This document shows, piece after piece, positions 1,454-21,275 of a DNA stretch of 24,304 bases. Location of the stretch: IMG/VR virus record IMGVR_UViG_3300029911_001830. One strand, 5' to 3'. Below the pieces are notes generated by a model, which saw only the letters and a list, made by a program, of their open reading frames with translations, ran no database searches and was not told the origin of the DNA. The position numbers and the translations under genes were made by a program. Position 1 is the stretch's first letter. Each line of letters begins with the position of its first letter. The DNA comes from a virus.

Positions 1454-1876
1454 ATGGCCGTCATTACCCAATCAAACAGTTCCAGTCAGCTTACACGGTA
1501 TTTCCTCGGCTATAGCACGCTGTATTCGAATATCACCGGCGTGCGTTCGCTCTATGACATTGATCTGATCAATATTGATCTGATGACATCATTCAATACA
1601 CGGGTGGGCGAGCGGGTTATGCGGCCCGACTACGGCTGCAAACTGTGGGATATGTTGTTTGAGCCGATGACGCCGATCCTGGCCGGTGCGATCATAGCCG
1701 AAGCCACCCGCATCTGCAACCTCGATGCCCGCGTGGTGCCCCAGACGATCACTCCGCTGCAAATCGACAAAGGGTTTCGCATCGAAGCCACGCTTTTGTA
1801 TCTGCCTTGGAACGTGATCGCCACATTCAGCGCCAATTTTGAACTCTCTGAAACCACCTATTTCAATCAGTCATAA
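1454..1876 (+). CDS. gp25/GPW-like baseplate wedge protein (TssE / P2 gpW / T4 gp25 family)
   Basis: 140 aa. The segment RSLYDIDLINIDLMTSFNTRVGERVMRPDYGCKLWDMLFEPMTPILAGAIIAEATRICNLDARV aligns with the T4 gp25 core RSIKNSLLGIITTRKGSRPFDPEFGCDLSDQLFENMTPLTADTVERNIESAVRNYEPRI. Both share P-D/E-F/Y-G-C-x-L-x-D-x-L-F-E-x-M-T-P, a conserved I/V-E run and an R-I/V pair. A GGTGGA RBS lies 6 nt before the ATG. The size is typical of the family. Confidence 0.8.
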   Translation: MAVITQSNSSSQLTRYFLGYSTLYSNITGVRSLYDIDLINIDLMTSFNTRVGERVMRPDYGCKLWDMLFEPMTPILAGAIIAEATRICNLDARVVPQTITPLQIDKGFRIEATLLYLPWNVIATFSANFELSETTYFNQS

Positions 1877-1887
1877 GGACCATTCCA

Positions 1888-4800
1888 GTGAGTTCGCGGC
1901 AAACAGACCTCCTCGCAGGAGACGAATGGACTTCGATCTATCAGGGTTTCACCCAGATCAATTTCAACGCCACCGACCCGGTAAGCATCAATCAAGCTCT
2001 TAGGAATTACATCCTCGTCAATTATCCCGAGAACTTCAATGATTGGATCATCTCCTCGGAATTTGTCGCGATAACCGATCTTCTTTCCTGGCTGGCGGGA
2101 ACATTGGCCTTCAAGACCGATATCGCGGCGCGTGAAAACTTCATCGACACCGCCGAATCGCGCGAAAGCATCCTGCGACTGGCGCGTTTCCTGTCATACA
2201 ATCCGAGCCGCTGTCAACCCGCCACTGGCGTGCTGAAACTCACCCAGGTAACGACCAGTGATGATGTGTACGACAGTCTTGGTAACGATCTCGCCAATCA
2301 GGCGGTGGTCTGGAATGACCCGAATAATATCAACTGGCAAGAACAATTCACCCTGGTCATGAACGCCGCGTTCATCCAAACCAATCCGTTCGGCCTGCCG
2401 TTAGCCTCCGGCACGGTGGCGAATGTGAGCACCGACCTGTACCGGATCAACGGTTTGGCTTCCGCCTCCAGCCTGAGTTTCAGCGCCACGGTCAGCGGCA
2501 CCGTGATGGCGTTCGAGATTTGCAATGGCGATTTCAGCGACAATGGCACTCTGTTCGAACGCGATCCCAATCCAGCCAATGCCCTGCAACTGTATTATTT
2601 GAACGACAGTAATGGTTATGCCAGCACGCGCACCGGTTTCTTCCTGCTGTTCAAACAAGGGAACACCGCCCAACAGGTGTTCCAGATCGCCACCCCGGTG
2701 CAGAACCAGTTGCTCGATCTGGGGGTAAGCAACGTCAATAATAACGATATCTGGGTGGATACCGTCGATGACAATGGCGCCGTGCAAATCGATTGGACCA
2801 AAGTCCCGGCGATCTTCAACAATAATATCACCTATAACAATCTCGCCAATACCGTACGCACAATCTACTCGGTGCTGACCCGCGATAACGATCAGGTCAC
2901 CCTCCGGTTCTCGGATGGCAGTTTCGGTCTCGCCCCGGTCGGCAATATTGCGGTGACCTACCGGGTGTCCAACGGTCTGACCTACCAAATCCAGCCGAGC
3001 GAAATCAGCAACATCACACTGCCGATCCAATATTTCAACACCGCCGGATCGCCCAAGCTGGTGTATCTGACGTTTTCGCTGCTGGAGACCGTGGCGAATG
3101 CCAGTGCAGCCGAAACGATCGAGCAAATCCGCCAGCGCGCCCCCCAGGTCTATGGTACGCAGAACCGGATGGTGTCCGGTCAGGACTACAATACCTTTCC
3201 GTTGTCCTCCAATCTGGCGGTCAAGATCAACGCCGTCAACCGAGTCTATAGTGGCCAATCGCGCTACATCGATCTGCATGATCCGACCGGCACCTATCAG
3301 GACCTGTCGATCTTCGGCGAGGATGGCCTGTTCTTCAGCGATCCGGCGAATACCTATTTCGAAGTGCCCACTACGCTCAATCGCACCTCATTACAAATCT
3401 TCAATGATTATATCGTGCCTGCGATCAATCAGTATACCACAGCGAATTTGATCCGCGACGTGCTGCTGCAGAATGTCCGGAACAACACCATCCGGGCGCC
3501 GCTCGATCAGGCCGGTGCGCCCTTTACCTGGGCGCCGTCCAGTGCCGCATTATTCAACACCAGCGGGACGTTCATCCATGATGCCAATCGGGGCCGCGTC
3601 GCCCTCCCCAGCCTGCCCGCTGCGGCCGGGTTGATCCAGGTCGGGGCGCTGTTACAGTTCAGTGTCAACAGCACCCTGGTTTGGGTTTCGGTGGTCAGCC
3701 TCGGCAATGCGATCGATACCCCCTTGGTGGTCAATACGGCAGGGCCAGTGACGCTGTCGCAAAGCCTGCCAAGCGGGGCGATCCTGCTCGCTGTGCTGCC
3801 CCAGGTGGTTACCACGGTGCCATCGACCCTGAACACCCCGAGCGGGTTGTCGGTCAATATGCTCTCGGGCTATCTCGATCTGCGGCTGTCCTTCTCGCTG
3901 CTCTACGATTATGCCACCGGGCTTTGGGTTCTGGGCACGGCGCAGAACAGTTTTGGCGCGCCTCAGGCGACGCTGGGCGGGCCGAATGGGACCACGGTGC
4001 TGATCGGGCTGGTTAACATTGTCGGCGGCGTGTGGCGGATCAATACGCGCGGCCTGCGCTATGTGTTCGAAAGCCTCGGCGCGGTCGAATGGTACGACAA
4101 TGGCGTGCGCACCCTGGCGCAGACCACGGGCGAAGCCACGGCCGATAATCTCAGCGTGCTGCGGATCAATCCCAATCTGAACGACCCGAGGGGCTATGCG
4201 TTGGGAATCGATTACGGCCTCACCATCGATCGGCTCTGGACCTATCCGGATGGCACGGCCGAACCCCGGCGCACCACGGTCTTGTTTGCTGATAGTAACG
4301 GTGATGGCGTGCCGGATCGGCCCGACACGTTTTACAACCTCATCTCCGGCAGCCCGGCGACAAACTATTTGTTCTGGAGCAACACAGCAGTGCCTCCGTA
4401 TGACCAACCATATTACACAGTGAACGGGTATGACAATGATGGTTTGCTGCAAGCGGATACCCCGCCGCTCGGCACGGTCGGCTTTCAGGTCGTCTCTTCG
4501 GTCACCCCATTAGCGAATGAAACCTTTTGGGTGTATCAACTCACCGGCTGGACGCAGGACACCACGAGCAGCTATCGCTTCGCCATCGGACGCGGTCCGA
4601 ATGTCGCGGCCAATTGGATCAGCGCCTCGGCCAGCGCCACGCCCAGTGGCGATGCGTTATTCTTTCATTGGCAACATTACGCCCCGAGTGATCATCGGAT
4701 CGATCCGGCCAGCACCAATATCGTCGATATTTTTTGCCTGACCTACTCGTATGACAGTGCGGTGCGGCAATGGATCACAGCGGGCGCGATTGCCGCCCAG

Positions 4801-5274
4801 CAACCCTATCCGCCAACCGAACTGGACCTCAGTCTGGCGTTTTCCGGGTTGGAAGATTTCAAGATGTTCTCCGACACGATCGTGTGGCGGCCCGTGCAAT
4901 ATCAATTCCTGTTCGGTGCCGCTGCCGATCCGGCCCTGCAAGCCAAATTCAAAGTCGTCCGGGCGACCAATTCGGCAGTCAGCGATGGCGAAATCCAGAG
5001 CAGCATCCTTGCCGCAATCAATGTGTTCTTTGCCGTCAGCAACTGGGATTTCGGCGAAACGTTCTACTTTACCGAATTGGCCGCGTATATCCATCAGCAA
5101 CTGGTCGGGCAAATCCTGTCTGTCGTCATCGTGCCAGTGATCGCGAATGGCGCATTCGGGGACGGGTTCGAGATACCGTGCCAAGCCAACGAGATTTTCA
5201 TCAGCGTGGCACAGGTCGCAGATATCGTTCTGATCGCGTCCAACACCGCGACCAACCTGCGGATCGCAAATTAA
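1888..5274 (+). CDS. large structural protein, putatively baseplate-J/gp6-like. The assignment comes from position only
   Basis: Uninterrupted 1128-codon ORF with a GTG start, AAGGA 9 nt upstream and a 12-nt gap after the gp25-like gene. In P2, T4, eCIS and T6SS the gene following the gp25 homolog is the J/gp6/TssF wedge protein. I could not confirm a family motif by eye. Its stop codon TAA (5272-5274) directly abuts the ATG of the next gene. Confidence 0.8.
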   Translation: MSSRQTDLLAGDEWTSIYQGFTQINFNATDPVSINQALRNYILVNYPENFNDWIISSEFVAITDLLSWLAGTLAFKTDIAARENFIDTAESRESILRLARFLSYNPSRCQPATGVLKLTQVTTSDDVYDSLGNDLANQAVVWNDPNNINWQEQFTLVMNAAFIQTNPFGLPLASGTVANVSTDLYRINGLASASSLSFSATVSGTVMAFEICNGDFSDNGTLFERDPNPANALQLYYLNDSNGYASTRTGFFLLFKQGNTAQQVFQIATPVQNQLLDLGVSNVNNNDIWVDTVDDNGAVQIDWTKVPAIFNNNITYNNLANTVRTIYSVLTRDNDQVTLRFSDGSFGLAPVGNIAVTYRVSNGLTYQIQPSEISNITLPIQYFNTAGSPKLVYLTFSLLETVANASAAETIEQIRQRAPQVYGTQNRMVSGQDYNTFPLSSNLAVKINAVNRVYSGQSRYIDLHDPTGTYQDLSIFGEDGLFFSDPANTYFEVPTTLNRTSLQIFNDYIVPAINQYTTANLIRDVLLQNVRNNTIRAPLDQAGAPFTWAPSSAALFNTSGTFIHDANRGRVALPSLPAAAGLIQVGALLQFSVNSTLVWVSVVSLGNAIDTPLVVNTAGPVTLSQSLPSGAILLAVLPQVVTTVPSTLNTPSGLSVNMLSGYLDLRLSFSLLYDYATGLWVLGTAQNSFGAPQATLGGPNGTTVLIGLVNIVGGVWRINTRGLRYVFESLGAVEWYDNGVRTLAQTTGEATADNLSVLRINPNLNDPRGYALGIDYGLTIDRLWTYPDGTAEPRRTTVLFADSNGDGVPDRPDTFYNLISGSPATNYLFWSNTAVPPYDQPYYTVNGYDNDGLLQADTPPLGTVGFQVVSSVTPLANETFWVYQLTGWTQDTTSSYRFAIGRGPNVAANWISASASATPSGDALFFHWQHYAPSDHRIDPASTNIVDIFCLTYSYDSAVRQWITAGAIAAQQPYPPTELDLSLAFSGLEDFKMFSDTIVWRPVQYQFLFGAAADPALQAKFKVVRATNSAVSDGEIQSSILAAINVFFAVSNWDFGETFYFTELAAYIHQQLVGQILSVVIVPVIANGAFGDGFEIPCQANEIFISVAQVADIVLIASNTATNLRIAN

Positions 5275-8200
5275 ATGACCAAACGGCGTTTCATCTCCCT
5301 GCTGCCCGGCTGCAACCAAACCGCCGACCTGACCGCCTTCTTCGGCGCCACGGTCGATGCCTTATTCCAGCCAGGAATTTCCGACAGTATCAATGGTTAC
5401 ATCGGTCACCAAATCAGCGGGGCCGACCCGACCACCGATTTCTATCTCGCCGAACCGGATCAGACTCGCGCGTTCTACCAGTTGGAACCCGGCATGGTGA
5501 GCCTCAATTCCACCAGCAATACGATTCGCAATGCCCTGACCTATCCGGATTTCATTTCTTATCTCGATGACACCGGGGCGATCGTCAGCAATCAGCAGCG
5601 GCTGTTCGACACCGCATTGTATAGCTGGGCGCCGCCCATCAATATCGACGCCTGGATGAACTATCGGCAATACTATTGGTTTGGCGATGGCGCCGAGGAT
5701 ATGCCGGTCCTGGCGATTAACGTTCCAATCACGTATTATACCGGCGACGGGGTTACCACGCTGTTCGCCCTGCCACCATCCATGACCTCGATCACCCTCG
5801 CGCAGGAAACCCCGACCGGTTATGTTGCGGGTGAAACAATGCCAACCACCCTCAGTCCGGATGGCAGCAGTCTGATCTTCGCAGATGCGCCTGCTCTTGG
5901 CACAGTGGTCATGGTGACGCGCATTGCCGACTTTATCGGCACCGTGACCAACATGACGAGCATCGATGTGACCGGACTCACCTCAAATGATACTACCCCC
6001 TCACGCGCGCCCAGTCCGCCGGTCACCCAGCTTAGCTCGGGGATGCTGCTGCGTATCTACGATACCTTGCATCTGACCGAAGGCTGGGGTGGTCCGGCCT
6101 GGGATACCACGCCCTGGGACGCAGCGGCCTTCGATCAGTATATCATCGATGGCGTCGGTCAGAGCATCCGGTTCACCCCGTATGGCACGCTGATCCGGGG
6201 TCTCGCGGCACAATACGTCACCATTGATCGCTCATCGCAGCAAACCAACGCATGGTCGAGCCGCAATCTGTGGGTGCATCGCGCCACCTTCCTGTGGGCC
6301 GGAGTGGATTTCGTCAGCCGTCAAGCCTTGCGCCCAATCATCGAATTCGTCCGCGATCTGGTGTTATGGCAATGCTCTGCCTCACTCTACAAACCGACCC
6401 CTCAGCAAGGCAGCACCCTCACCTTCGCGGGAACCTTGCCGGTCGCCACCACCGTCAAGGGGTTTGATGTCGAGATCGGTGTCACGAGCGAAACGTTAAC
6501 CACGCCGATTCCGGTTGTTACAGTCATCACCACAGCATCCACTGCGGTCACCCTGGCGACACCCTTGCCTGCGCTACTGGGACCGTTCGCGGCAGGCACT
6601 TCCATGACCTTCCAGCAGATTTGGTCGGAGGATGTGGCGCCATTGTTCATGCTGTATGATCTCAGCACCACCCCCGCGCCCTTGAACGATCCGGTTCGTT
6701 ATCCCAACAGCACGTTTTATGGCGATCACATTTTCGGCTACGCGCTGGGCACCGGGGCGGCCGATCCGGTCATTTTGCAACCCTTGGTGTTTGACAGCAA
6801 TGGTATCATTGTCTACGACAATGCGATCGCCACGACACAATATCTGGCCGGATCGACGCCGATCATCGGGCTTTATCGTTACGCCACGCATAGTAGCGCG
6901 GGTGATCCGCAATATTACTCGCCGTGGCACGATGCGGGCATCACCAGCCAGTCGATCGCGATCAATGGCTTTTGGGATATTCCGGTCAATTTGCAAGCCA
7001 ATCCCTTGGCGCAAGAGGTTAGCCGGGTGTCGAACAGCGATGTCCAGCAGCATTTTGCCGACTTGATCAGCCAGCAAAGCAATTTCAGCGGCACGGCCAG
7101 TGCCAGCAACAACTATCGCGACAGTCCGCGCGATCTGTCTCTCGGCACCCAGGTTCTCCAGCATCGGGCGACCCTGCTCAAGGCCATGCTGCTGGCGTCG
7201 TCCAGCCAATTCGATCTGACCCTGGCACTGCGCTACGCCGATCAGGAATATAACAGATTCCGTAACAAATTCGCCCGCAAGCTGGTTGATCTATGCAATC
7301 GTGGTGTGCTGCGAGTGGATATCGATCCTGCCAGTACTTGGGTGGCGACGACCCTGGCGGCCTTGAAGATTGGCCATACCAATGCGATGCCGTTTTGGCT
7401 CAGCACGATGGCGGGCGGCCAATGGTTCATTCCGCCCACGGCCTCGGCCCTGGGTATCCAACCGGCTGTGGTGCCTGCGCTGCTGGTCGATGCCTTGTAT
7501 AATCCGCCGATTACTTTCATCCAGGGGCATGACGGCAGTCGCACACCCGCCAATAATGACTGGCGCGATGCGATCATCCTGGCGCTGGAACAACTAATCT
7601 ACACCAATCTCGATCCTGCGTTGCAGACCGAAGCGCGGCCGGTGTTTGACATTCAGCAATGGTGTGGCGGGCATTTCTACGCCCCCGCGAACGGCTATAG
7701 CCACGCCGAGGTGAGCAGCCTGCTGGCGCCATTCTTCGAAATCTGGGCGCAGAACAACGGGCTGGATTATCGCAATGCGCTGGGCTACGATCCGAGCAAT
7801 CCTTTCACCTGGAACTATCGCGGCAGCCTCGACCTCTTTGGCTTGCCGATGGCTGGAAGCTGGCGCGCGGTCTATCACGATTATTACGGCACCGATGCGC
7901 CACATCTGCGTCCCTGGGAAATGCTGGGCTTTCAAACTCAGCCGTCCTGGTGGGTGACGCAGTATGGCGCGCCGCCTTACACCCCCAGCAATCGGGTCTG
8001 GATCGACGCCACGAACGGCTATATCGCGGGTGGCGTGCGCGCGGGCTATGATGCGGTCTATTCTCGGCCCGGTCTGCTGGCGGTCTTGCCGGTCGATGCG
8101 ACGGGCCATCTGCGCGATCCCACCCAAATCGGTCTGGTCACGGTCACTTCGGGGCTCGTCGCGCTCTCCAGCCAGCCCTGGCAAGCAGGCGATTTCGGTC

Positions 8201-11200
8201 CGGTCGAGATGCTTTGGCGGACCACCCCGTCGTTTCAATATGCCCTGGCCTGTGTCAGTTTTTTGATGAAGCCCGCCCGCTTCACCGATACCTGCTGGAC
8301 GACCCTCACGCGCGGCCTGATCGCTGATCAATGGGTCGATCTGAACACTTTGTTGCGTTCCACTGACTCAACCAATCTGCTGCATGGCGAGAGCGATGCG
8401 GCAGGCCAACCTGTGATGGTCACTGGCGTCTCGCAATGGCTCGCCGACTATCTGGTTTCGCAGGGCGGCACGAGCAGTCAATTGGGCGATGCGGTGCGCG
8501 GCTTGGATGTGCGCCTGCTGCATCAGATGGCGGGGTTCGTATCGAGCAACACGGTGCAGGCGGTGTGCGATAGTTTCGGCTTGCTACCTGCCGAGAATGT
8601 GCAGACAATTCTCTATACATCGCCACCCAACGATACCGAGGTCTATAGCGGCGTGATCGTCGAGTGGACGGGCGCCGGGTGGCGGGTGATTGGCTATGAC
8701 GGGCGCACCCCTTCCTTCACCATCATCCCGCCTGATCCGGCCTCGGTCAAAGGCGTGATCAGTCTCGCCAGCGTCGCGGAACCGAAGATCAGCCCCTGGC
8801 AAGCCAGCACGTGGTATGCGCTGAATACTTACTGCAATTCGCAGGGTTCGGTGTATCAGTGCCAACGCTCGCACACCAGCGGCCCGATCTTCGAACTGAG
8901 TTTCTGGACCCCGCGTCCCGATCTCAGTCCATTCGCGATCCCGGCGCCACGCATCGTCACCTATGCGACCGGTTTCAAGGCGCTCCAACAAGTCGCCTAT
9001 GGCACGATATTCAACACCTATCAGGCGGTCGGCGATTTTCTGCTCGGCTATGAACGTTACTTGGTATCACGGGGGTGGATTTTCAGCGGCACCGATCCGC
9101 AATCCGGCGCGATCCTGAACTGGTCGATGGCGGCATTGGAATTCCTGTCCTGGACGCAGGTCAAATGGCAGCCCGGCAACTTCATCGCCCTGTCGCCCGG
9201 ACAGCGGCAAATCCAATTCAGCACGCTCACCGGGACGATCAATAACGTGGAGGACAACAGCACGGGGTTCTTCGGGCTGTGCGATCGCGTCGGCGCCCCG
9301 ATCAGCCAAAACAACGTCCTGCTCAGCCGTCTGGATGGCGATCTGACCATCACCGCGCTGAATGCCGATATCTTCCTGGCCCGGCTCTATCTCAGCACCA
9401 TCGAACATTTGTTAGTTTTTGATAACGTAACCATCTTTGACGATGCCATCTATCTGCCGTTGTTCAATCTCCGCCAGCCGCGTCTGCAATTGATCTGCAA
9501 TCGGGCGCAGCAATGGAGCGGACGGCTGGACGCACCCGGCTTCGTCATCACCGGCAACACCTTGGCCTCTAGCTTCGAGAAAGCCGCCAATGATGTGCGC
9601 TACATGTTTGACATCGAACTGGCAGATGTGGCCGACCTGCGGGACTACGCACGTCACGTGATCGGCTATGCCGAGCGTAATTACCTGGATAACCTCCTGT
9701 TGGCCGAAGTCGAGCAGTTTGAGTTCTATCAAGGAATGATCCAGCAGAAGGGTGCCCCCGGCGTGTTCGAGAAACTGATGCGCAGCACCCGCGCATCCGG
9801 CAACAGCACGCTATCGTTCCTCGAAGAATGGGGCTTTCAGGTCGGCCAATACGGGGCTCCGGCCGATGGGTTCGTGACGTTCCAACTGGCGCAGACCGAT
9901 ACCCGTGACGATCCGCAGTTTGTCAGTTTTCAGCCGCTCGCCAATGCGCCGCTGAACTGGATCATGCTCGCGCCGGGCGATCCGCGCTGGTATGACGTGC
10001 CGCCGAACCCGAGCCAATTTTTCACCATGCAGAGCGGCTTCGTCCCTGCCGCCTTGCCGATTGCCGGGCCGGTGCGGCTAACCGATGTCGCCAATACAGT
10101 GTTCGCCTGGGCCGACGTGCCGACGGTGTTCAGCCAAGAATTGCAGGCAGGTACTGCTACCTTGCCCGCCGGAGAACGCCTCTGGGTGTATGAACGAGCC
10201 GATCTAACCTTTACGGTGCTGGAAAGCTTTAACACAGCGGCGCTCCCAAATGCGCTGCTCAGCGTGCTCGCACCCGTCATCGGCAGCACCGATCGAACCG
10301 CGACCCAGACCACGCGACTGACCCTCAGCCAACCACTCAATCTGCAACAAAGTGACATTGGTAGCTACATCGTCATTGATGCGCCCAGTCTGTCCTATCC
10401 GGACCTGCATGGTGTCGCAACCTTGATCGCCATCAACTTCGCCAATAATACCATCGATATCGATTCGGTTAGCACACAGGGCTACGTCTATCTGCCCACC
10501 GACACCGCGCCTATGGTGCGCATTCTGCGCGAAATGCGGTTTCCTGATCTGGCGACGCTGATGGTCGCGGGCTACGATTGGATGATCGGCGACCTCGCCT
10601 GGATCGACGGTTCAGCCACGATGCCCTGGACGGTGCAGCAATGGGATGGCGGCGAATGGTCTCTCGCCCGCCAGCAGCCCCTGCGCAATAATCCGACGAC
10701 GATCAGCGAGACGCTGATCTATGCAGCCGGGACGCAGATCACGGGTATGCTCATGAGCAGCAACACGCCAGTGGTGAACGCCATCGACGTGATCGATCCG
10801 GTTGCTGGCTTAATTGCAGGCCGCGCCCGCAAGGAACTCGATTATCTCACCCCGTTCGATCCGGCCCGCTATAACGCCGGAGCGACATCTGCTGCGCTCA
10901 ACCCGTGGGGGCCGAATGAACGCGGCCGGGTGTGGTGGAATATCGCCACCGTCAAGTTTATCGATCCCTCCACCGATGTCTTAGGCGCAAGTAACGATCG
11001 CGATGTGGTCGAGTTGCACTATCGCATCCAGCAATGGACCCGTGTGGCGCCACTTAGCAGCGTCGATGTGTATGAATGGATCGAAAGCCTCGTCGATCCG
11101 ACGACCTATATCGCCCAGGCCATAACCGATTCGTCCTTGGGACGGGTGTATCTCACGGACGCGCCCTCCTGGGTCGAGCGGGTGGTGTATGATCCGACCC

Positions 11201-20516: not shown

Positions 20517-21275
20517 ATGAGTATTCGCGCCTGGATGCGGCTGGTGGAGGCGATCATGTCCCCCGCAGCCCCACCGCCCGTCACCGAGACGGCCGCCTTC
20601 CAGCAGTGGTTTGCGGGCAGTAAGGTGGTCGATAAGGCGGGGAAGCCGCTCCGCTGCTATCACGGCACCCAATCGGACTTTCATACGTTTTCCAATGAGG
20701 ATGCGCCGGGGCGGGGCGGTCTGTTGGCGTTCTTTTCGGTGAAGCCGCAATTTGCCAGTTCCTATGCCTCGGACGAGCGCTCGCCTGAGGTGCGGGCGGG
20801 CGCCCAGGTGATGCCGGTCTATCTGCGCATCGTCAATCCATTCGATTACCGCAAAGATTATCACATGGCCGGGAGTTTCTATGATGAGACCGGCGGCATC
20901 CAGGATCGTTTTGAGAGCAACCGCATCCTCATGGGCCTCGGTTGGAAGATCGATAACATTGACGATGTCTCGACGCCGCTGCTGACGGAAAAGCAGTTTA
21001 CCAGGGCACTCCGCAAGGGCAGTTGGGATGCCTTGGAGGCGCCGGACTTCGTGGAGTATATCCATGATGCTGGTTATGACGGGATCGTGTTGATGGAAAA
21101 CCGCAGCCTCAACTTCGCCATCTTCGAGGCTAATCAGGTTAAGAGCGCGATTGGCAATCGGGGGACCTTCGATCCCGAGTCCGATCACATTGGTGAATCC
21201 GCACCGGCGCGCGATACCGGGTGGCGGGCGTTTCACCGTATTTCACGGCTCGGCCGCAAACACCCTGAGGTCTAG
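20517..21275 (+). CDS. hypothetical protein, possibly ADP-ribosyltransferase-fold (YHGT motif)
   Basis: 252 aa, GAGGA 13 nt upstream, ordinary composition. LRCYHGTQSDFHTF (YHGT at 20658-20669) resembles the H-G-S/T NAD-binding motif of H-Y-E-class ARTs (PARP, Tpt1/KptA). Possible Tyr and Glu follow in FASSYA and NFAIFEANQV. The opposite-strand ORF 20412..21236 is Arg-rich and antisense-like. Confidence 0.6.
   Translation: MSIRAWMRLVEAIMSPAAPPPVTETAAFQQWFAGSKVVDKAGKPLRCYHGTQSDFHTFSNEDAPGRGGLLAFFSVKPQFASSYASDERSPEVRAGAQVMPVYLRIVNPFDYRKDYHMAGSFYDETGGIQDRFESNRILMGLGWKIDNIDDVSTPLLTEKQFTRALRKGSWDALEAPDFVEYIHDAGYDGIVLMENRSLNFAIFEANQVKSAIGNRGTFDPESDHIGESAPARDTGWRAFHRISRLGRKHPEV

Follow-up and report, generated by a model that had tools for sequence, protein, structure and literature searches.

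The window analysed here is a 24,304-nucleotide stretch of viral DNA (IMG/VR record IMGVR_UViG_3300029911_001830), and a single reading frame of 3549 codons occupies much of it, directly downstream of a baseplate gene. The question raised by this locus is what such a protein is and where in a virus particle it would belong. A first-pass annotation made from the letters alone had described it as a giant protein of modular, fibre-like architecture with a duplicated tryptophan-aspartate motif; what it had observed was confirmed, while its interpretation was supported in part only. On balance we lean towards the reading that the product of this ORF is part of the virion of an uncultivated jumbo myovirus, where it would be a giant structural protein of the baseplate wedge or periphery. 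The features on which the argument is built are collected in Table 1.

Table 1. Features of the giant gene and of the two wedge genes upstream of it, with window coordinates (aa, residues of the giant protein)
Feature	Position	Strand	Basis
gp25-like baseplate wedge gene, 140 aa, first of conserved trio	1454..1876	+	Pfam GPW_gp25 2.1e-08; phrog_43 1.6e-14
gp6/J-like baseplate wedge gene, 1128 aa, stop abuts giant ORF start	1888..5274	+	phrog_10646 1016 bits; phrog_219 6e-25
Giant ORF, 3549 aa, PHROG 10938 member	5275..15924	+	ORF listing; stop-free translation; PHROGs match; tblastn
Family-specific N-terminal domain, aa 1-137, LLPxxNQT...FF...LFQPG...GYIG...YYWFG	5275..5685	+	family alignments; 1317 clusters
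Module N, YxGDG beta-sandwich, aa 149-222	5719..5940	+	HMM from relatives only, E 2e-19; AF2 pLDDT 70-87
WD triple-pentad site N, aa 271-282, GWGGPAWDTTPWD	6085..6120	+	family conservation; low-pLDDT loop
Conserved non-repetitive body, family core, aa ~290-2600	6142..13074	+	PHROG best stretch aa 564-2151; occupancy and identity profile
CBM5/12 carbohydrate-binding module (predicted), aa 1175-1211	8797..8907	+	Pfam CBM_5_12; 1ED7 profile match; conserved signature
WD triple-pentad site C, aa 2674-2685, GWDVATWDTKPWD, just after invariant LLFDR block	13294..13329	+	family conservation; low-pLDDT segment
Module D1, aa 2812-2902, first C-terminal module of the first-pass annotation	13708..13980	+	AF2 pLDDT 84-94; hhalign
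Module D2, aa 2903-2978, second module of the first-pass annotation	13981..14208	+	HMM match; hhalign N-D2 96.8%
Beta domains D3 and D4, aa 2983-3212	14221..14910	+	AF2; relation to module partial (D3) or absent (D4)
Module D5, aa 3216-3286, third module of the first-pass annotation	14920..15132	+	hhalign D1-D5 93.8%
Beta domain D6, aa 3298-3378, invariant GERIEYF...LRRGTxGT block	15166..15408	+	invariant alignment columns; AF2
Module D7, aa 3389-3468, extra copy beyond the three first noted	15439..15678	+	hhalign N-D7 92.8%
Private C-terminal tail, aa 3470-3549	15682..15921	+	few or no aligned homologues; low pLDDT

The frame opens with ATG and is translated without stops, and the TAA of the upstream 1128-aa ORF (5272-5274) abuts that ATG at 5275, so that the TAAATG junction at 5272-5277 on which translational coupling had been proposed is indeed present. 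Identical genes occur both in a JGI sample and on an ENA contig of 259 kb, and the giant protein occurs in 46 index blocks. Megablast of the window against catalogued phages returned no near-identical DNA match, and we take the source to be an uncultivated jumbo myovirus. The protein is a new member of a jumbo-phage family that is catalogued and has long had annotated members from cultured phages, but is uncharacterised: against PHROGs it matched phrog_10938 ("virion structural protein") with 1262.9 bits (E 0; best stretch aa 564-2151), and tblastn matched 93 jumbo-phage records. The best of these relatives were Agrobacterium phage Atu_ph07 gp180 (YP_009611845.1, 4449 aa), Sinorhizobium phage Phosso XYS97451.1 (4555 aa), Pseudomonas phage PA5oct gp355 (YP_010678859.1, 3857 aa) and Escherichia phage 121Q gp582 (YP_009102169.1, 3323 aa). 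A profile of the first 137 residues of the window protein, run against 1.84 billion representative proteins, matched at least 1317 clusters (50% identity); 108 of the 143 new matches listed were of 2000 aa or more (median 3572 aa, longest 6281 aa), which makes 3549 aa mid-sized for the family and does not bear out the idea that its size is far beyond known systems. In a query-anchored alignment of 170 family proteins conservation extended over nearly the full length; more than 100 members were aligned up to aa ~2100 and 40-100 up to aa ~3400, and the last ~100 residues were private to the window protein. An NCBIfam scan of the giant protein gave nothing, and the only solved structures sharing sequence with it are relatives of its small CBM5/12 module.

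Literature on PA5oct, Atu_ph07 and phiKp24 gives no function to the giant gene, the orthologues appearing only as large structural or hypothetical proteins. The PA5oct orthologue is named among the largest proteins of that phage, beside a wedge gene (PMC7318152), the Atu_ph07 paper has a list of baseplate proteins in which the giant gene does not figure (PMC6102473), and in the cryo-EM study of phiKp24 the baseplate was not resolved (PMC9700779). Incorporation into the virion is recorded for PA5oct gp355, whose annotation gives detection in virions by ESI-MS/MS and which is the sole orthologue to carry such a note.

The gene order gp25-like, gp6-like, giant is shared by the window, Atu_ph07, Phosso, PA5oct and 121Q. 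The gp25-like protein is 37% identical to Atu_ph07 gp182; the gp6-like protein strongly matches Atu_ph07 gp181, PA5oct gp354 and 121Q gp583, weakly matches T4 gp6 by BLASTP (E 0.003), and was also hit by TIGR02243 (2e-06) and, in precomputed annotation, by PF27647 (DUF8360). The giant gene thus lies directly after a gp6/J homologue, the position of a core wedge protein, and this position is kept in the relatives. Since the two genes abut, the giant protein would be made together with the gp6-like wedge protein. On the source contigs (L007-L009) a 1017-aa VgrG-like spike protein (precomputed Phage_base_V and DUF2345) is encoded ~2.5 kb upstream of the gp25-like gene, so that the window starts inside a baseplate module. 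In 121Q (L004) an HNH endonuclease gene, which its annotation links to a group I intron, lies between the gp25-like and gp6-like genes (2646-3410), and the junction from gp6 to the giant gene measures 79 nt (6877-6955) with a hairpin and T-run, as against the abutting junctions elsewhere.

The genes downstream of the giant gene in the window have no counterparts adjoining the orthologues in the cultured relatives. Just downstream (16757-19279, +) an 840-aa protein with a major-vault-protein shoulder (4.7e-18) and vault repeat domains is encoded, whose sole relatives in the phage collection (37% identity over 96%) come from LR756500, LR756501 and LR756503, metagenomic "huge phage" genomes of 462-735 kb. 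Further on (20517-21275, +) a protein of 252 aa is encoded that contains an ART-PolyVal ADP-ribosyltransferase domain (7e-24), of the kind typically seen in the polyvalent proteins of conjugative elements and large phages. Large phages sometimes eject giant multi-domain proteins, and with an ART-PolyVal gene nearby one could suppose that the giant shares only its coding position with the tail module and is itself internal to the virion or ejected from it, either like a tape measure or as a polyvalent effector. Its synteny, however, is with wedge genes and not with tube or tape-measure genes, scans with Pfam, NCBIfam and PHROGs found no enzymatic or effector domain in it, and its C-terminal third is all-beta and of adhesin or baseplate type; we consider an ejected protein very improbable.

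Given its gene position, the protein was compared with the wedge proteins known from that slot, and as a homologue of gp7 or gpI it failed every sequence and profile test. BLASTP against T4 gp7 gave nothing and tiles of the protein reached at most 0.8% against it; tiles against a gp7 family profile built from six phages had a maximum probability of 1.2%, and hhalign against P2 gpI gave 0.1%. The tile comparison also covered T4 gp6-12 and gp53. Foldseek of the N-terminal AF2 model returned no gp7-type match, in a model whose residues 1-120 have pLDDT below 50. The negative sequence and profile tests favour a reading in which the giant is a peripheral add-on to the baseplate rather than an equivalent of gp7 or gpI: the core trimer would consist of the gp6-like dimer and a separate, unrecognised small protein, and the giant would be attached outside it. 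Small unannotated ORFs around the module could supply such a protein, and the best structural match of the giant is an outer-periphery protein of phiKZ. Against this stand the conserved position right after the gp6-like gene with abutting codons, which is the canonical gp7/gpI slot, and the finding that the ORFs of the window hold no other gp7 candidate, and we judge an add-on to be unlikely. We therefore keep to the wedge/periphery reading, in which the giant protein occupies the gene position of gp7/gpI and probably also their role.

What would take the place of gp7 homology is the family-specific N-terminal domain. Residues 1-139 match positions 16-153 of the family profile at 4e-40, and this signature domain stands at the extreme N-terminus in all matches listed; against Pfam, PHROGs other than 10938 and the PDB it gave no match. 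Its AF2 pLDDT is below 50. The first model (aa 1-900, 20 sequences, mean pLDDT 52.6) was mostly of low confidence, and the Foldseek matches of this model were read for aa 120-365 only. The AF2 models covered the protein on either side of aa ~900-2400, a stretch of ~1,500 residues of the body.

Behind this domain comes the YTGDGVTTLFALP motif, present at aa 155 as the first-pass annotation had stated, where it was taken for a motif of tail-fibre N-termini. This stands at the level of the fold: Foldseek of the region of module N matched 7y22_e with prob 1.0, and the fold is that of T7 gp17-type anchors, accepted at fold level only since the T7 gp17 N-terminus gave 11% by hhalign and no Pfam match. 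The module is not N-terminal, since it begins at aa 149 after another domain and recurs at aa 2812-3468. The C-terminal arm (aa ~2810-3469) consists of about seven beta-sandwich domains (AF2, pLDDT mostly 80-94). With deep family profiles and AF2-guided boundaries hhalign related module N to D1, D2 and D7 at 93-97% (N-D1 93.9%) and D1 to D2 at 91.3%, and an HMM built from the N-terminal modules of relatives also matched aa 2921-2964 of the window protein with 14.3 bits, against at most 3.8 bits in 200 shuffled proteins. As controls, 32 tiles from elsewhere in the protein all remained at or below 4.2%. D3 aligned with D1 at 86.8% over 29 columns, and D4 with every other domain at 20% or less. 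Because the mutual hhalign scores are 91-97% as against 4.2% at most in the controls, we conclude that the giant protein carries at least five ancient copies (N, D1, D2, D5 and D7) of one domain of ~70 aa. All three of the C-terminal VxVNG...DY...TVTL modules first noted are thus homologous to each other and, in addition, to D7 and N, although they are invisible to self-BLASTP, which was empty at E values up to 10; the internal repeats expected on self-comparison exist only as ancient copies revealed by deep profiles. With shallow profiles of three sequences only one of the three had been supported and the first and third (A and C) had seemed unsupported, a result overturned by the deep profiles and their controls. 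A recent internal duplication was discarded, self-BLASTP being empty and the sole DNA self-match being a 22-nt motif stretch that largely reflects codon bias. The sixth C-terminal beta domain contains a family-invariant PGVxWIxGERIEYF...LRRGTxGT block (window ~15328-15432, aa ~3352-3386), which is assigned to no known family.

These modules also bear on the view of the first-pass annotation that the giant is itself a tail fibre or receptor-binding protein. It would then be long and possibly trimeric, anchored by the YxGDG module and recognising the host with sugar-binding domains. The T7 gp17-type anchor fold, the presence of a CBM5/12 module, the C-terminal third being the most variable part, and tailspike-like genes that follow a homologue on locus L006 all speak for it. 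A fibre of the T7 gp17 type would nevertheless begin with its anchor and continue into a trimeric shaft and a distal receptor-binding domain, and this is not the layout we found: the anchor-type module sits behind the 137-aa family domain and recurs internally, no BLAST repeats and no fibre-type sequence periodicity were detected, ~2,400 conserved and non-repetitive residues lie in between, and the C-terminal domains are confidently modelled as a monomeric chain of beads. PA5oct, moreover, encodes separate fibre proteins. A fibre seems to us distinctly unlikely. On L006 downstream of the C-terminal homologue P0022 (7019-11876) there are genes with arabinofuranosidase-catalytic and beta-helix domains, candidates for depolymerases or tailspikes; the window has no equivalents at the matching position.

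Within the conserved body the CBM5/12 module is the sole element with a solved relative by sequence. It was the only Pfam match of the window protein (CBM_5_12, E 0.012) and, with 16 bits, fell short of the 26.2 cut-off; the family profile, however, matched the chitinase A1 chitin-binding domain (1ED7) at E 2.4e-05, and the module's aromatic signature (W1175, Y1181, Y1194, H1200, F1206, W1211) is conserved in more than 100 members. Profile and signature together identify it as a predicted sugar-binding module. It occupies one fixed site in more than 100 members, and three members (P0012, P0013 and P0016) have an extra copy inside the N-terminal signature domain (aa ~50-95); this small module seems to have been inserted independently. 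Elsewhere in the body, two overlapping tiles (window 8422-8718, aa ~1050-1148) showed a weak profile similarity to T4 gp10 residues 249-341, a fibre-docking domain in branched tailspike systems; at 19-23% probability this was too weak and was dropped. Just before the LLFDR/WD site lies an alanine-rich insertion, predicted to be helical (AIIAAMAAAGTAASALASANGG..., window ~13108-13240, aa ~2612-2656), which homologue P0022 lacks and of which P0021 has a short form.

Of the two reported copies of the heptapeptide, the first reads WDTTPWD (aa 276, nt 6100) and the second, 2403 residues further on, WDTKPWD (aa 2679, nt 13309); the DNA under the two copies is nearly identical (21 of 22 positions; self-blastn E 0.001), the only significant self-match of the ORF. 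Within this one protein the repeat means little: two matches at six of seven positions were observed against 3.8 in shuffles of a protein of such length, which is not above chance, and the near-identity of the DNA is largely due to identical peptides and codon bias (five of six codons shared; P about 0.06 for all six). Across the family, by comparison, 119 giants contained W[DEN]xx[PGLT]W[DEN] 91 times, where shuffles gave 1.7; the motif occurred in 48 of 108 full-length members and at least twice in 27 of them, usually with one copy towards the N-terminus and another in the C-terminal third. Both sites of the window protein are conserved alignment columns, each with three aromatic-Asp pentads. 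It is this recurrence in the family and the conserved columns at both sites, not the repeat within the protein, that make the motif real. Three contexts were seen: beside a (V/I)(D/E)GVG block, after LLFDR, and after "NG..L..DY" modules. The motif is absent from all other ORFs of the window and from the gp6-like partners; at the N site it is absent from Atu_ph07, PA5oct, 121Q and Phosso and present in closer metagenomic relatives. We regard it as a family signature. Both sites lie in low-confidence AF2 loops, and any function they have would be that of a docking clamp or of a glycan- or cation-binding loop, these being candidates.

The mode of assembly that we propose can be put as follows. 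The N-terminal domain (aa 1-137) would attach the giant protein to the inner wedge of gp25- and gp6-like proteins, in the role of T4 gp7 or P2 gpI; this gp7-equivalent role and this mode of attachment we infer. The ~2,400-aa body would build an enlarged outer baseplate and display the predicted CBM5/12 sugar-binding module, and the variable C-terminal part, a chain of some seven beta-sandwich domains of which four are of fibre-anchor type, may form an arm towards the host surface or dock fibres or tailspikes. A bolder version, which is speculative and rather improbable, would have the family be a single-polypeptide stand-in for the outer baseplate that T4 builds from gp7, gp8, gp9, gp10 and gp11, nucleated by a new N-terminal wedge-docking domain unrelated to gp7/gpI, with the WD triple pentad ((W/F/Y)-D-x3-(W/F/Y)-D-x2-P-W-D, up to five sites per protein) as a loop of a kind not described before, serving in docking or in glycan binding and so organising fibres or contact with the host.

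The gene itself will not surprise a specialist. Members of the family are typically among the largest genes of these phages. What goes beyond the papers and database records consulted is the five-copy module repeat, the conserved CBM5/12 module and the statistics that establish the WD pentad as a signature across the family; fibre-anchor-like modules and the WD motif are traits of the family and not peculiarities of the window sequence. The placement in the gp7 slot, the five anchor-type modules with the conserved CBM5/12, and a defined WD pentad motif make concrete experiments feasible on PA5oct, Atu_ph07 and 121Q, and bear on how jumbo phages build oversized, hyper-branched baseplates.

Among known systems the closest are RaK2-like and related jumbo myoviruses, represented by the four cultured relatives (Atu_ph07, PA5oct, 121Q and Phosso), whose giants are homologous to the window protein over aa 1 to ~2700 with 27-34% identity and share with it the N-terminal signature domain, the CBM5/12 module, the LLFDR block and the gene position after gp25-like and gp6-like genes; their C-terminal third, however, is divergent (less than 20% identity after aa ~2850), and the giants of PA5oct and 121Q, unlike the window protein, are without the YxGDG module. 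The best structural match is an outer-periphery protein of phiKZ; the peripheral proteins PHIKZ027 and PHIKZ087 of the phiKZ baseplate (9xqd, 9xqs) are much smaller, however, with 898-963 aa, they match with only 9-11% identity and a high rmsd, and sequence homology to them was not detected. The fold of its modules is common to the anchors of T7 gp17 (N-terminus, 7boz), GP4, P-SCSP1u, Carin-1 and CBA120 TSP4; in podophage fibres the anchor occurs once, at the N-terminus of a trimeric fibre, whereas the giant protein has it five times within one chain. With the third core wedge proteins of contractile systems (T4 gp7, P2 gpI and TssG of the T6SS), finally, it shares a gene directly downstream of, and abutting, a gp6/J homologue and the expectation of being a structural component of the baseplate, but it is 3.4 times as long as T4 gp7 and 20 times as long as P2 gpI.
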